From the NCBI GenBank assembly GCA_963785725.1, contig CAWAWS010000039.1, positions 160,001 through 224,000 of the forward strand: 64,000 bases of DNA, written 5' to 3'. Position numbers: made by a program. This DNA comes from an uncultured delta proteobacterium. GTDB taxonomy: Bacteria; Myxococcota_A; Polyangia; Palsa-1104. Of this stretch, positions 12,001-24,000 are shown in pieces. Each line of letters starts with the position of its first letter. Position 1 is the first letter of the stretch.

Positions 12001-15000
12001 CCGACCGTGAACGTGTTCGGTTGCATCGCCGCGTAATCTGCAATCGGCGGCACGCGAAGTCAACGTCGGGAAATCGGCGGCGGCGGCGGCGACCACTGTG
12101 CCATCGAGGCGTCGACGATTCGTTGCAGAGGCGACCAGCACAAGAACAGCGCCAGCGTCGGCAGCGCCAAAATCGCCAGGAGGCCGCCGTGGACGCGCGC
12201 GATCGGCAGCGCCGTCTCGTTTTTCGGCGCCTCGAAGTACATCGTCTTCAGGACGCGCGCGTAAAAGTAGAGCGACAGCGCGGAGTTGAGGATGCCGACG
12301 AGCGCCAACGTCAGCATGAAGCTGCCGCCGCGCGCGAGCAACGCATAGAACAAGTAGAACTTGCCGAAGAAGCCGGCCAGCGGCGGCAAGCCGGTCAGCG
12401 AGAACAGGAAGACGGCCATGGCGGCGGCGGTGCGCGGCGCGCGGCGACCGAGGCCGGCAAAGCCAGCGATCGTCGGCGCCACGCCGACATTCTCGACGGC
12501 GATGATGACGACGAAGGCGCCCAAGCCCATGAACAAATAGGTGACGAGATAGAGCAGGATGGCGCGCGTGCCGTCGAGGCCGCCGGCGACGAGGCCGAGC
12601 AGCAAGTAGCCGGCGTGCGCGATCGAGGAGTAGGCGAGCAGTCGCTTGAGGTTCGTCTGCTGCAGCGCCGCCAGGTTGCCGAGCGTCATCGTCGCCGCCG
12701 CGATGAGGCCGAGCAGGAGCGGCCACGGCGCCGCCGCGTGGCCGATCTCGACGGGAATGGCGCCGCCGAAGAAGCGCAAGAGGAGCGCGAATCCGGCGGC
12801 TTTCGGGCCGACCGACAAGAACGCGCTGACCGGCGTGGGCGCGCCTTCATAGACGTCGGGGCACCACATGTGGAACGGCACGGCGGCGACTTTGTAGCCG
12901 AAGCCGGCCAAGCAGAAGACGACGGCGAGCAGCACCGTGGCCGTCGCGGGCGTGGCGACGCAGGCGAGGCGAACGGCGGTGAAGCTGGTCGAGCCGGCGA
13001 GGCCGTACAAGAGCGACATGCCGTAGAGCATCACGCCCGAGGCGACGCCGCCGTAGATGACGTATTTGAGCGCGGCCTCGGCCGATTGGCGCGAGCGGCG
13101 ACGGAAGCCGGCGAGCACGTAGCTCATGATCGAGACCATCTCGAGCGCCAGGAACGCCGTCAGCAGGTTGGTCGCCGAGGCCATCAAGATCATGCCCAAC
13201 GTCGTCGTCAGGATGAGCGCGTGCAGCTCGGCGGCGCCGTTCGCCGTCCGGCCCAATGGCATCGTTCGCGCGCCACGTGGCCACGGCGATGAGCGCGTTC
13301 GCCAGCAGGAAATAGAGCGTGAAGAAGTCGGCCAGCGGATCGCGCGCCATCAGGCCGAAGAAGAGGCCGCGGCCGGCCGGATCGGCGGTCGCGATCGTCG
13401 CCCAAGCGGCGGCGGCGAGCGCGACGAGCGTCAACGCCGTCGCCCGCGCGTTCGACCGCTTGCCGGCGATCAGATCGACCGCGAGGATGACGAAGACGGC
13501 GATCGACACGATCGTCGCCGGCAGAAACGGCACGAGGCTGTGCGCGTTGTCGAGCAACTAGGGCAGCCCTGCCAGCGCGCCGGCGCCGCTTCCGCCGCTC
13601 ACGTGGCGCAACAGATCGCCGAGCCCGGTCTCGATGAGCGACAAGATCGGCAGCGGGTAAAAGCCGAGCACGAGCACGATCGCCGCCAGCGGCAGCAGCG
13701 TCACGGCTTCGCGGAAGGTCACGTCGTTGAAGATGCGGCGATCGGTCCACGCCGAATTCCACGGACCCAGCTGCACGCGCTGCAGCGCCCACAGATGATA
13801 GGCCGCCGTGATGACCACCCCGAGCGCGGCCACGAGCACGATGGCGCGATGCACCGGGAAGGCGCCCAAGAAGACGAGCAGCTCGCCGATGAAGCCCGAC
13901 AGCCCGGGCAGACCGAGCGACGCCATGAACGCGAAGCCGAACAGCGCCGCGTACTTCGGCATTTGCGTCGCCATGCCGCCGAAGCGATCGATGTCGCGGG
14001 TGTGCGCGCGATCGTAGAGCACGCCGACGAGCAAGAAGAGCATGGCGGTGATCGTGCCGTGGTTGAACAGCTGCAGCATGGCGCCGTCGAAGCCGCTCCT
14101 CGTGAACGCCGCGATGCCGACGAGGCAGTAGCCCATGTGGCTCACCGACGAGTAGGCGACGAGCTTCTTCAAGTCGCGCTGGGCGAAGGCGCACAACGCG
14201 CCGTACAAAATATTGATGGCGCCGAAGACGGCCATCGTCGTCGCGGCCCACTGCGTGGCGACGGGCAGCATGGCGAAGTTGACGCGCAAGATGCCGTAGA
14301 TGCCCATCTTCAGGAGCACGCCGGCGAGGATGACGCTGATGGCCGTCGGCGCCTCGACGTGCGCGTCGGGCAGCCACGTGTGAAACGGGAACATCGGCAC
14401 TTTGATGGCGAAGCCGATGAAGAACGCGACCCACACGACGTGCGTGAAATCGAGGCCGAAGAGCGTCAGGCCCTTGGCGTTCCAGTCGTTGGCGTAGGCC
14501 AGCTTGACCATGTCGAACGTGTGCGCTGCCGGCGAGCCGTCGATGAGCGTCGTCGGCGCGGCGTTGTAATAGAGCGCGATGATGGCCAGCAGCATCAACA
14601 CCGAGCCGGCCAGCGTGTAGAGGAAGAACTTGATGGCGGCGTACTCTTTGCGCGGACCACCCCAGATGCCGATGAGGAAGTACATCGGCAAGAGCATCAG
14701 CTCCCAAAAGACGTAGAAGAGGAAGAAGTCGAGCGCGCAGAACGTGCCGAGCATGCCGGTCTCGAGCAGCAAAAAGAGCGCGAAATAGCCGCGCACGTCG
14801 CGCTCGATGTTGAAGCTGGCGATGACGGCGATCGTCGAAACCAGCGCCGTCAACAGCACCATCGTGATCGACAGGCCGTCGACGCCGACGAAGTATTCGA
14901 CGTGGAAGCTCGGGATCCACACGGCGTGCTGGATGAACTGCAGGCCGCCGTTGCCGTGCACCTGCGCGAAGGTGCGATCGAAGCGCGCGCACAAGAAGAT

Positions 15001-21000: not shown

Positions 21001-24000
21001 GCTCGGCGGAAACAGATCGACGTCGAAGGGCGTGCGCGCGTCGGACGTCCAGCGCTGCGGCGCGCCGCCGAACGACTGCTGCACGGTGACCGTCGTCGGG
21101 CCGCGCGTGTGTTGGCGGGCGACGGCCGATTCGACGCTGTCGTCGGCGTCGGCGACGACGCGATCGGGCGCGACGGCGCGCGCCGGCAGCTCGAGCGGGC
21201 GGCCGATGGCGTCGCGCAGGTCATCGAGCACGACGCGCGTCGCGGCGCCGACGACGAAGACGGGCGCGTCGGCTTCGACGAGCATGCGTTCGCCGCGCTG
21301 CAGCTTGGTCGGGCGCGCGTCGCGGATGGCGCCTTCGCGCGCGACGGCGGCCGCGGTCGCGGCTGGCGACCGATCGTTCGCGCAACCGGCCGCGACGACG
21401 ACGAGCGCGACTGCCGCGAGCCGCGTCATCAACGATCGATCTCCGGCGCCACGACATCGAGCGACGCGATCAGCGCCACCAAATCCGCGACCATGAGGCC
21501 ACGCGATTTGTCGCGAATGATGCCCATGGCGTTGAACGAGCCGGTGCGAAAGCGCGCCCGATAGGCGTGCGCGCCGCCGTCGCCGACCACGTAGCAGCTC
21601 ATGTCGCCGCGCGCCGCTTCCACGCGCGCCATGGCGTCGCCTTTGGGCTTGAGCTTCTTCGGCTGCTTCCAGAAGTCGGGCGGCGTCGCGTCGATGAGGT
21701 CGAGGCACTGGCGGATCATCGACACCGACTGGCGCCACTCTTGACCGCGCACCCAATAGCGATCCCAGCAGTCGCCGACGACGCCCATGAGGCCGCGTCC
21801 GATGGGGACCTCGAACTTGAGCTTGCCGTAGATGGAGTAGGGCAGGTCGCGGCGCACGTCGAAGTCGACGCCCGAGGCGCGCAAGTTCGGTCCGACGAGC
21901 CCGAACGACTTGGCCTCGTCGGCGGTGATGACGGCGAGGTTGGCGAGCCGGCGCACGAACAGCTCGTTGTGCGTGATGAGCCGATCGAACTCGTCGGCGA
22001 CGTACTCGAAGTGGTCGCACCAGGCGAGCACTTTGTCGCGCCAGCCGGCGGGCATGTCCCAGCCGACGCCGCCGATGCGATGGTAGTTGTAGGTCAAGCG
22101 CGCGCCGCAGAGCATCTCGAGCAGCTCGTTGACGTACTCGCGCTCGCGCAAGATGTACGTGAACGGCGTGATGGCGCCGATGTCCATCGCCGTGGCGCCG
22201 AGCGCGATGCAGTGCGAGCTGATGCGGTTGAGCTCGTCGGAGATGACGCGCAAATACTCCGCGCGCTCCGGCACCGGCAAGTCGGCCAATTTCTCGACGG
22301 CGAGCGCCCACACGTGATTGGCCGGCATCGCGCACACGTAGTCGACGCGATCGGTGTAGGGCATGAAGCCCTCGTACGTGCACTTCTCGGCGATGTGCTC
22401 GATGGCGCGATGCAAGTAGCCGACGTCGGGGATCGCCTCGTGCATGATCTCGCCGTCGGTCCTGATGATGAAGCGGATGACGCCGTGGGTGCTCGGATGC
22501 TGCGGCCCCATGTTGAGCGTCATCTCTTCGCCCGACGCCTCGTAGGCCAAGATGAGCTCGCTCATGTCGGCTCCTTCGTGGCCTTGTCCCAGATGGGCAA
22601 GAGGTCGAGCGTGTTCGGCCGCGTCGTCGGCATGCCGCGATATTGCGTCGCCTCTTGGTAATCCTTGCGCATCGGATGCCCCGGCCAATCGTCGGGCAGC
22701 ATGATGCGCCGCAAGTCGGGATGGCCGACGAAGACGACGCCCAAGAGGTCGAACTGCTCGCGCTCGGACCAATCGGCGGCCCGCCAAATGTGCGCCACCG
22801 ACGGCACTTCCGGCTTGGCCCGCGGCAGCGCGATCTTGACGACGCAGCCGTGTCGTTGCGCGTACGACCACAAGTGATAGACGATCTCGAGCTGCTCCTG
22901 CTTGATCCAATCGACCGCCGTCAGGTTCTGCAGGAACTCGAAGGCGAAGTCGCGATCGTCGCGCAGCGCCGTGGCGACCTCGAGCCAGCGCTCGGCGCGG
23001 ACGCGGAAGTACGGATCTTTGGTGCCGTCGGTCGTGAAGTCGTGGACGGCGTCGCCGAAGCGGCGCTCGAGCGCGTCGAAGAGGCTGCGGGCGTCCATCA
23101 GCCGGCCGTCACGTCTCGGTATTTTCGAGCGTGTCTTGTCGCGACGCCTTGATCCACTCGAGATCCCCGTGCCGCCAGACATAAGCGAGCCCGAGCGCCA
23201 GAATCGCGATGAAGACGAAGAGCTCGACGAACGCCACGCCGCCGAGGCCGCGCGCCACCCAGCGACGGAAGACGACCGCGACCGGATAGGTGAAGGCGAC
23301 CTCGACGTCGAAGATGAGGAAGACCAGCGCCACGATGTAAAAGCGCGGATTGAAGTTGAACCAGGCCGATTCGACGGGCACTTCGCCGCATTCGTAGACG
23401 GTCAGCTTGTCGAACTCGGGCACTCTCGGTCGGACCAGCCAACCAAGCGTCAGCATCAGCAGCGGAACCGACAGTCCCACCGCGACGAAGAAGAAGATGC
23501 TGGCGAGCTCGAAATGCACGTTGTGCTCCGAAATAGCCGTTCGTCGGCGCAGGGTCAAGCGCCGGCAAGGCTCGCATTTGCGCGCGCCCGACCGACGGAA
23601 TGACTAGAACATGTTCTAGCCTAAATGTAACGTGTTCTAGTTACAGCTTGCGCAGATCGAAGCGGCCGTTGACCAGCTCCTCGCGTCCCCACGGGAAGGC
23701 CACTTTGTCGACGGCCGAAGCGGTCGTCGCGGCCAAATCGGGGCGAAAGCCGGGCTCGCGGCGCACCAAAGCGACCGTGAAGGCGTCCTTGATGCCGACG
23801 CGCTTGAGCTCGTGCAGCGCGATGCGGAAGGTATCGCCGGTGCGCGACAGGTCGTCGACGAGACAGACGCTGCGGTCGGCCAGGTCGCGCGTGGGCGGCA
23901 CGATGACGCGCGTGACGCCGCCGCGTTTGGCCAGGCGAATGGGGAAATATTCTTTGTTGAGCATGAAGCTCAGCGTGGTGCCGACGATCGATCCGCCGCG

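Follow-up and report, generated by a model that had tools for sequence, protein, structure and literature searches.

A second complex I without NADH module in uncultured Myxococcota, with a predicted RnfB-type [4Fe-4S] domain tethered to NuoI

Outside the cyanobacteria, the source of the electrons that enter 11-subunit complex I is named as an open question in the literature (PMC3144371, PMC11238625). A locus in an uncultured delta proteobacterium of the Myxococcota raises it in a particular form: what feeds a complex I that is encoded without NADH module, and what does an additional iron-sulfur domain at the end of its NuoI contribute? In the window, by which we mean the whole stretch of 64,000 nucleotides analysed here, ten genes lie on the minus strand in the order nuoA-C-D-H-I-J-K-L-M-N (12060-23558). 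Each has a Pfam match over cut-off, and Pfam searches found no nuoB, nuoE, nuoF or nuoG within this stretch. A separate full complex I is encoded on two other contigs (nuoA-B-C-D-G-H-I on C12, nuoE-F-J-K-L-M-N on C36), and the two sets share 36-47% identity. The first-pass annotation had described just such a second complex beside a full one, and our gene-by-gene searches agree. A second NuoF-like match on C36 scores 28 bits, under cut-off, and falls in a degenerate open reading frame. The features of the locus are:

23109..23558, minus strand: nuoA (PF00507, 108.8 bits; start codon uncertain)
22562..23101, minus strand: nuoC (PF00329, 153.5 bits), directly after nuoA with no nuoB between
21429..22571, minus strand: nuoD, short type, 380 aa (PF00346)
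20944..21438, minus strand: N-terminal extension of NuoH, a signal-peptide/lipobox-like start and a soluble domain matching no Pfam family
19790..20943, minus strand: nuoH core (PF00146, 367.6 bits)
19220..19800, minus strand: nuoI core, two CxxCxxCxxxCP clusters of N6a/N6b type
19090..19220, minus strand: nuoI linker, rich in Ala, Lys, Pro and Gly, poorly conserved
18850..19090, minus strand: C-terminal PF04060 domain of nuoI, four invariant Cys
18240..18755, minus strand: nuoJ (PF00499)
17914..18243, minus strand: nuoK (PF00420)
15560..17914, minus strand: nuoL (PF00662 and PF00361)
13558..15549, minus strand: nuoM (PF00361)
12060..13557, minus strand: nuoN (PF00361)

Several irregularities of this locus concern the assembly. 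The gene nuoH reads in frame into nuoI in the source assembly only and in 0 of 71 relatives, so the NuoH-NuoI fusion is, on sequence comparison, an assembly error, as had been suspected. Within the NuoI of the source genome, residues 120-149 or thereabouts are garbled by two compensating frameshifts (about 19330-19414). None of the four sequencing runs compared has the extra base at 19414 in its contigs; these contigs are short, come from related strains and inform on that indel only, and the search for runs with the sequence listed no RNA data set. A three-frame translation places a further frameshift in nuoN near 13230-13260. Other peculiarities recur in relatives, where the N-terminal extension of NuoH is longer and contains a PDZ domain. 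The N-terminus of nuoM (about 15145-15549) has a signal-peptide-like start followed by an Ig-like domain, and PF22544 is over cut-off in nuoM of the relatives L027 and L033. With its single nuoM, the operon does not encode a '2M' complex I.

The junction of nuoA and nuoC without nuoB is also found in 20 of 80 listed related loci, these being the best 80 of 396 confirmed loci. In the source genome a lone nuoB stands at C6:93680-94186, on the contig where the first-pass annotation had noted it; its translation has the tandem-Cys N2 motif. This gene is present in 9 of the 12 genomes with a long NuoI, versus none of the 30 other genomes of the order, and wherever a listed locus has a nuoB inside its operon (19/19), this lone gene is what that nuoB matches best. 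By this co-occurrence and similarity, the lone nuoB is the displaced partner of the operon, and all 11 subunits are then encoded, B, C, D and I of the Q-module and A, H, J, K, L, M and N of the P-module. The best NCBIfam model for NuoD is PRK12322, at a score below its cut-off, and the best PDB matches for NuoD and NuoI are cyanobacterial NdhH (6hum_H) and NdhI (6hum_I). NuoD residues H23, H27, Y76 and D128, which we take to be the His/His/Tyr/Asp residues of the quinone site, are invariant across 34 NuoD rows. Gene content, N2 and quinone-site residues would place the operon with the C6 nuoB in the quinone-reducing branch of the complex I superfamily. The NuoD of the operon has neither CxxC pair of the NiFe site, which by the criterion of PMC3144371 excludes a Group 4 membrane-bound [NiFe] hydrogenase.

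The additional domain of NuoI matches PF04060 at 18961-19059 (34.7 bits; cut-off 23), in line with the first-pass annotation, and this is the only copy found in the source genome. The spacing of x16 that had been given for the end of its motif does not hold: the motif reads C-x2-C-x4-C-x17-C, and the last spacing is x17 in 70 of 72 homologues and x16 in two. The four cysteines (Cys244, 247, 252 and 270 of the reference P0001; codons near 19044, 19035, 19020 and 18966) are invariant in 73/73 aligned domains, and conserved surface motifs flank the cluster position. The domain is mostly acidic, with a mean net charge of -3.6 and a charge of -2 or lower in 67/72 homologues; in the nearest relatives of the source genome (L037, L040) it is nearly neutral (-1 to +1). 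The segment that joins the domain to the NuoI core is basic, with a mean of +4.4, and the linker spans 40-60 aa in homologues with a column identity of 0.31-0.42. Two tandem PF04060 copies, about 100-120 aa apart, occur in 12 of the 80 listed loci. NuoI scores below the cut-off of the RnfB model TIGR01944 (53 vs 68.7 bits), its domain being C-terminal and not behind an N-terminal anchor, and a profile search found no RnfB in the source genome; we therefore rejected an assignment to Rnf.

The predicted structure of the domain has a pLDDT of 96.8. Its best match among 48,161 chains in the VIA structure search was residues 34-96 of Acetobacterium woodii RnfB (9eri_B; Z 5.6, rmsd 2.3, 63 aligned residues, 30% identity), a Z-score that is modest for a helical domain. 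Profile searches matched RnfB (8ahx_B, E 1e-7; 7zc6_B, 6e-7) and also the corrinoid protein CFeSP, and in Foldseek the best four rows were all CFeSP, with weak E-values of 0.55-2.2. A Foldseek search with the full-length NuoI model returned NuoI-type chains only. This model consists of two confident parts joined by a low-confidence hinge (pTM 0.46; pLDDT <50 at residues 189-206 of the homologue P0002). By the best match of its predicted structure, the domain appears to have the fold of the FdI/B8 segment of RnfB. With this segment (9ERI, 7ZC6, 8AHX) and with the N-terminal [4Fe-4S] domain of CFeSP (AcsC; 2YCL, 4DJD) it shares the C-x2-C-x4-C-x17-C motif, a small helical fold and a linker; unlike FdI, it sits on the C-terminus of NuoI, not behind a membrane anchor, and one to two extra helices precede it. 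In published Rnf structures, FdI/B8 is described as a highly mobile shuttle, and the docking of ferredoxin takes place at clusters other than its own (PMC9588780; 10.1101/2024.06.21.599731).

A recount gave the same 12 of 42 genomes of the order with a long NuoI as the first-pass annotation, each with a PF04060 match inside that gene. The motif is kept in 76/80 listed loci, and the domain is missing in 3 of these 80 and in 3 of 11 carriers of a second family. Of 24 genomes across the phylum with the same NuoI clade, 17 encode the short form, and in 12 of these it lies in an A-B-C-D-H-I-J-K-L-M-N operon. On a quick, unrooted tree, which leaves out the rows whose NuoH could not be used and four others that were duplicates or frameshifted, the domain-less state needs 3-4 changes. 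From all this, the complex evidently persists without the domain; the sister complexes without it and the several changes of state on the tree count against the carrier role proposed below. The genome G023, cited earlier as having a normal short NuoI, does have the short form; its only NuoD is of canonical type (40% identity), so there is no sign of a second complex there, and the short NuoI in all likelihood belongs to its ordinary complex I. Under the label G110, which the first-pass annotation also gave for a carrier, the phylum search showed no match, but the label may stand for a different genome there. In 20 phylum loci we found no other module fused to short-form NuoI and saw long open frames upstream instead. 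No cultured carrier is among the matches listed (best 80 of 396 confirmed loci); the named ones are all metagenome-assembled genomes.

As to donors, neighbourhood clustering of 89 loci revealed no conserved redox or donor gene flanking the operon, and among the 80 listed loci the only nuoE/F/G match was one G, on the opposite strand and within the canonical operon. POR_N was found in 12/12 carriers versus 17/30 others of the order, and in the second family strong POR_N matches occur in 7 of 8 domain carriers versus 48 of 140 non-carriers; in one domain carrier (G448) no POR_N or 2-oxoacid:ferredoxin oxidoreductase was seen. These co-occurrences were counted among kin, and such oxidoreductases are common. 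The source genome encodes a GltD-like flavoprotein-KorA-KorB operon on C39, with the flavoprotein at 391441-393246 and KorAB at 392967-396130. A ferredoxin is encoded on C26, and the genome has soluble ferredoxins, so that the need for a tethered carrier is not obvious; the presence of NuoF in all carriers and a neighbourhood without encoded donor likewise stand against a carrier.

We put the probability at about one half that the domain, as a tethered one-electron carrier, supplies NuoI with electrons from donors of low potential, which may be 2-oxoacid:ferredoxin oxidoreductases. The operon and the displaced nuoB would form an 11-subunit complex I without N-module that, by homology, should couple quinone reduction to proton pumping. 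Four invariant cysteines and an RnfB FdI/CFeSP fold make it probable that the C-terminal domain of NuoI binds one [4Fe-4S] cluster, and on its flexible linker this domain would serve as a ferredoxin-like carrier of single electrons. Its reductants would be cytoplasmic donors of low potential, with 2-oxoacid:ferredoxin oxidoreductases the most plausible, acting directly or via soluble ferredoxin; the domain would then swing to NuoI on its N6a side, and the electrons could travel on through N6b and N2 to quinone. It would thus be an accessory that raises the local concentration of the carrier rather than an essential element of the wire.

The first-pass annotation had proposed a built-in entry site for ferredoxin-type donors. 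A role in electron entry is what the sequence suggests, but the notion of a dock fares less well. A fixed extra station at the place of NuoG, where a donor enzyme or soluble ferredoxin would bind and from which electrons would be relayed to N6a, would suit a domain on the first cluster carrier of the Q-module in a complex without NuoG, the conserved motifs beside its cluster, a basic region that could attract acidic ferredoxin, and the ferredoxin-fed NdhI and NdhH as best PDB matches. It is nonetheless unlikely, given that the linker is variable, that the domain family shifts between three subunits (NuoI, NuoC, NuoB) and includes tandem copies, and that the Rnf homologue is mobile and not where ferredoxin docks; a mostly acidic domain suits a built-in carrier more than a dock, which for acidic ferredoxin would be basic. 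Less probable still is a regulatory cluster, be it an O2/redox switch or an aid to assembly, which would gate the second complex or stabilise it while soluble ferredoxin feeds NuoI directly, as in short-form relatives. The domain is indeed dispensable in many relatives, PF04060 is fused to a response-regulator receiver in P0556, and the displaced nuoB adjoins an erpA/iscA-like gene in the source genome and at least five of eight other loci; yet the structurally characterised homologues are electron-transfer modules, and a domain that has been tethered to the Q-module more than once, and that exists in tandem, suits a carrier better.

The second set might also borrow the canonical NuoEFG and be an NADH dehydrogenase isoenzyme with an incidental extra domain, which we consider improbable. 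One nuoEFG for two sets has been suggested in Syntrophobacter (table note in PMC4453560), 9 of the 80 listed loci lie head-to-head with canonical nuoA, and NuoF is found in 12/12 carriers. This co-occurrence says little, since nuoF is near-universal in the order (39/42), and an identity of only 36-47% between the two sets counts against the idea. In addition, BLASTP against the canonical NuoD on C12 shows a gap of 20 residues in the NuoD of the operon, and this segment of headed NuoD, which presumably contacts NuoG, is missing from all 58 second-type rows checked. Least credible is a complex running mainly in reverse, with proton-motive force driving quinol electrons onto the tethered cluster, from which ferredoxin-dependent enzymes would receive them. 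Against it, electrons on their way from quinol to ferredoxin have to climb about 0.35-0.4 V, which takes four protons per two electrons to their limit, and the single nuoM means that an extra pumping module is absent. In its favour, the GltD-like flavoprotein-KorA-KorB operon could use or supply reduced ferredoxin, and Rnf, which owns the closest solved homologue of the shuttle, is reversible (PMC9588780).

Among known systems, the tethered carrier would join a complex that resembles cyanobacterial and chloroplast NDH-1 (6HUM) in being headless, NDH-1 being ferredoxin-fed, but scores below the cut-offs of its family models (ndhI equivalog TIGR00403, 80 vs 302; ndhH PRK07415, 333 vs 583). NdhI is not known to have a tethered cluster, and NDH-1 uses accessory subunits. 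The 11-subunit enzymes, including that of Desulfitobacterium (PMC3144371; PMC11238625), share nuoABCDHIJKLMN without E, F and G and a NuoD without NiFe cysteines, and ferredoxin or pyruvate:ferredoxin oxidoreductase has been proposed as their donor (PMC3144371, Moparthi and Hagerhall 2011; PMC11238625). The myxobacterial complex differs from them in the PF04060 domain for a predicted third cluster on NuoI, in a nuoB outside the operon in one subclade, and in N-terminal soluble domains on NuoH and NuoM. Anaeromyxobacter dehalogenans 2CP-C has a third nuo cluster (PMC2330069), a candidate relative of this clade. Literature searches, with subscription journals and the Anaeromyxobacter supplements (PMC2330069) largely outside their coverage, found no paper on a fusion of NuoI and PF04060.

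The domain family recurs as a linked redox-enzyme module elsewhere. Of 46 outside homologues scanned, 20 were CysJ-like flavoproteins (FAD_binding_1; PRK06214 type), 19 with a listed PF04060 match, and the domain lies N-terminal to the FAD domain. In CysJ this is the position of the flavodoxin shuttle. In other headless (acidobacterial) operons, with no nuoE/F/G match in any examined, a subtype with C-x2-C-x3-C is tethered to NuoC in 74/80 loci and to NuoB in 29/56 complete genes. The host there is also a headless complex I; however, the x3 subtype of these fusions and of the CysJ-like proteins branches as a group of its own on the domain tree (71 columns, with a long-branch warning), sits on another subunit, and comes with a NuoD only 43-45% identical. 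The myxobacterial NuoI form looks like an independent recruitment.

Two domain subtypes on three Q-module subunits in unrelated headless complexes suggest a general design. Tentatively, and with less confidence than in the carrier itself, we propose that headless complexes I repeatedly tethered an Rnf-type [4Fe-4S] shuttle to the Q-module, a swinging ferredoxin coupling 2-oxoacid oxidation to proton pumping in soil bacteria, with x4 on NuoI in Myxococcota and, independently, CysJ-type x3 on NuoC, NuoB, NuoI or a separate gene elsewhere. A small domain that is predicted to fold well and is linked covalently to the first subunit with clusters offers a concrete handle on the electron source of such complexes. 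If the proposal is true, soil Myxococcota would have, next to NADH, a further path along which low-potential electrons drive proton pumping.

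The minus strand of the window carries ten nuo genes in the order nuoA, C, D, H, I, J, K, L, M and N (12060-23558), each scoring above its Pfam family cut-off. Tblastn and family searches over the whole source genome (G000) recovered a complete canonical set elsewhere, with nuoA-B-C-D-G-H-I on contig C12 and nuoE-F-J-K-L-M-N on C36, so that the genome does encode a second complex I besides the full one, as the first-pass annotation had claimed. The window subunits are 30-47% identical to their canonical counterparts over most of their length, and related loci are found in Myxococcota, nearest to Polyangia.

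The assembly of this region has indel errors. NuoH reads into NuoI in G000 and the two are fused in none of 71 relatives, which bears out the earlier suspicion that this fusion is artificial. An extra base at window position 19414 is absent from the contigs of all four sequencing runs compared. Judged against 37 homologues, about 30 internal residues of NuoI are garbled by two compensating frameshifts, and nuoN contains one frameshift.

On the 3' side of nuoN (window 10250-12053, minus strand) lie N-carbamoylputrescine amidase-like and agmatine deiminase-like genes, the latter frameshifted in G000; the pair likewise comes after nuoN in several other genomes of this family. In a Polyangia subclade, NuoH begins with a signal-peptide/lipobox-like sequence and a soluble domain of 160-300 residues, and NuoM with an Ig-like (HYDIN/VesB) domain, missing in more distant relatives, and a start that resembles a signal peptide.

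N-terminal regions of NuoH and NuoM
Window 20944-21438 (minus strand); L027:7902-8810, L030:6566-7465, L035:7642-8541: NuoH N-terminal extension
Window 15145-15549 (minus strand); L027:14518-14826, L033:8270-8581: NuoM Ig-like N-terminal region

The NuoH extension of the longer relatives contains a PDZ domain above cut-off in all three proteins scanned, plus EF-hand-like repeats (one weak match); G000 has a short form without PDZ. Two loci (L151, G014:C15; L152, G024:C144) represent a third nuoA-B-C-D-H-I-J-K-L-M-N operon type, 34-51% identical to that of the window, and six genomes of genus g13 have a similar short NuoD. G000 also encodes a [NiFe]-hydrogenase small and large subunit pair (C20:304000-307000, L011), the large subunit frameshifted, which we assume to resemble the high-affinity group 1h type.

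Counted from the first conserved residue, the window NuoI (P0001) has 321 residues. Its two ordinary CxxCxxCxxxCP clusters are followed by a linker and, at the C-terminal end, by the motif C244-x2-C247-x4-C252-x17-C270, in which the last spacing is 17 residues and not 16 as first annotated. The motif belongs to a PF04060 domain (34.7 bits, cut-off 23), of which no other copy was found in G000. The long NuoI was confirmed in 12 of 42 order genomes. Among 185,579 genomes scanned, 396 relatives were confirmed; of the 80 listed, 76 keep the motif, three are without the domain and one is truncated by the end of its contig (these overlapping sets belong to one collection, and their counts are not additive). 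Twelve of the 80 listed loci have two domain copies. All four cysteines are present in every one of 73 aligned domains, and the Atlas holds three clusters with this architecture (61, 50 and 109 members), mostly from Myxococcota. The linker spans 40-60 residues, with many Ala, Lys, Pro and Gly (column identity 0.31-0.42). The domain has a mean net charge of −3.6, with 67 of 72 sequences at −2 or less; in the relatives closest to G000 it is almost neutral. In Polyangiaceae (L060-L087), the long nuoI is often found by itself or with nuoJ-K only, apart from the rest of the operon.

The model of the isolated domain has a pLDDT of 96.8, and its best structural match among 48,161 chains is Acetobacterium woodii RnfB, residues 34-96 (Z 5.6, rmsd 2.3, 63 aligned); a profile search with the domain matched RnfB and CFeSP chains. 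In the full-length model, built from only 38 sequences (pTM 0.46), core and domain are split by a stretch below pLDDT 50.

The window NuoD lacks the NiFe cysteine pairs and retains the His, His, Tyr and Asp positions that we take to form the quinone site. It also lacks a 20-residue segment of canonical NuoD, as do all 58 second-type NuoD sequences checked. The best PDB matches of NuoD and NuoI are cyanobacterial NdhH and NdhI, and both score below the respective equivalogs. The NuoI clade occurs in 24 of 401 sampled phylum genomes (7 long, 17 short), 12 of the 17 short forms lying within A-B-C-D-H-I-J-K-L-M-N operons, and in 11 of 151 genomes of a second family (8 long, 3 short). Homologues of a short form showed no PF04060 among the 120 matches listed. 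In a quick NuoH+NuoI tree (66 sequences, unrooted), the domain-less state requires four changes, at least three of them forced by well-supported branches. Given these changes and the short forms in both samples, the domain is best seen as an old but dispensable addition to an 11-subunit clade.

The eleventh subunit, NuoB, appears to be encoded apart from the operon. The lone nuoB noted earlier on contig C6 has orthologues, 88-96% identical, in nine of the 42 genomes of the order, G000 among them; all nine holders are among the 12 genomes with the long NuoI, and none among the 30 others. The three carriers without a match are 92, 80 and 51% complete. Among the 80 listed loci, 19 have the order A-B-C-D-H-I, and in all 19 the operon nuoB is closer to the C6 than to the C12 gene; 20 have a B-less A-C junction. 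Since the C6 gene tracks the carriers and best matches in-operon nuoB, we conclude that nuoB moved and was not lost in one subclade. Downstream of the displaced nuoB come an erpA/iscA-like gene and one for an FAD-linked oxidase (C6:92500-94186, L007), an order shared by most of the nine loci.

A search of 1.84 billion representatives with the domain profile gave 2,293 matches. The 46 scanned, from the best 150, included 20 CysJ-like flavoproteins, one response-regulator fusion and one fusion each to NuoC and NuoB. A metagenome scan seeded with the latter two yielded at least 601 pattern matches, 286 confirmed and 80 listed. The listed loci are nuoA-B-C-D-H-I-J-K-L-M operons with a short NuoI and no match to NuoE, F or G in any; the domain is on NuoC in 74 of the 80 (L153-L226) and on NuoB in 29 of 56 complete genes, counts that describe this NuoC-seeded family and not all complexes lacking NuoE/F/G. 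In seven loci compared, NuoD is only 43-45% identical to that of the window. According to the Atlas, the NuoB fusion is mostly acidobacterial. These copies have the C-x2-C-x3-C spacing of the CysJ type, whereas the myxobacterial domain on NuoI has the C-x2-C-x4-C spacing of RnfB (21 of 21 sequences). The two subtypes form separate groups (SH-aLRT 94 and 98) in a 71-column domain tree prone to long-branch effects. The simplest reading is at least two independent recruitments of the domain to such complexes.

Further copies occur in other settings. An unrelated NuoI with the x3 subtype (L229:6059-7171) lies in an A-B-C-D-I-H-J-K-L-M-M operon with two nuoM genes, and a separate domain gene directly follows nuoN in L228, L230, L231 and L232. 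Its products form a family of about 250 residues, with a helical N-terminal part of no Pfam family (also P0477, P0500, P0514, P0521, P0529, P0567). The x4 subtype is also found with a GidB-like methyltransferase domain (P0461, P0467) and as three tandem copies joined by Pro/Ala linkers (P0429).

In the available parts of two reports on Rnf, the FdI segment (35-95) of the Clostridium tetanomorphum complex, with a motif of this type, is described as highly mobile and as a proposed electron shuttle, and ferredoxin binds at the cluster most distant from the membrane (PMC9588780); the B8 domain (30-100) of A. woodii is likewise described as mobile and proposed as a shuttle, with ferredoxin docking near B1-B2 (10.1101/2024.06.21.599731). 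Starting from what was observed directly (genes, motifs, conservation, predicted fold and nuoB co-occurrence), we propose, at a probability of roughly one half, that the NuoI domain is a tethered carrier: it would bind a [4Fe-4S] cluster, move on its linker and pass electrons from a donor via N6a, N6b and N2 to quinone, with proton pumping. That it serves instead as a fixed dock is unlikely, and a regulatory or assembly role somewhat less likely again. We would be surprised if the second set borrowed NuoEFG. A complex running mainly in reverse seems very improbable.

No donor was identified, and the flanks of the second operon hold no conserved redox gene. G000 encodes soluble ferredoxins and one 2-oxoacid:ferredoxin oxidoreductase operon (a GltD-like flavoprotein, KorA and KorB). 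POR_N is present in 12 of 12 carriers versus 17 of 30 other order genomes; in the second family, the numbers of genomes with strong matches (E < 1e-40, counted by hand from a table) are 7 of 8 for those with the domain, 1 of 3 for those with the short form and 48 of 140 for those without this NuoI clade. As kin are not independent, this co-occurrence is a lead only. NuoF is present in all 12 carriers and in 39 of the 42 order genomes.

Our literature search found no publication on a NuoI with a fused PF04060 domain, and no cultured carrier was identified among the relatives listed. An additional nuo cluster has already been published for a myxobacterium: the accessible text on Anaeromyxobacter dehalogenans describes a third, Chlorobium-like cluster, back-to-back (PMC2330069). 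The architecture is real and conserved, and represents an apparently undescribed form of 11-subunit complex I. As far as the accessible portions of the sources go, such enzymes are widespread, with no designated partner found and the Q-module seen as a docking platform (PMC3144371); PFOR/ferredoxin has been proposed as donor (PMC11238625), and a GltD-like replacement of NuoI (PMC4758237) and FpoF-less Fpo (PMC4153887) are described (see also PMC4453560, PMC8357420, 10.1101/2021.07.06.451402). The architecture bears directly on what feeds electrons into 11-subunit enzymes, and the domain, though dispensable in relatives, is easy to test.
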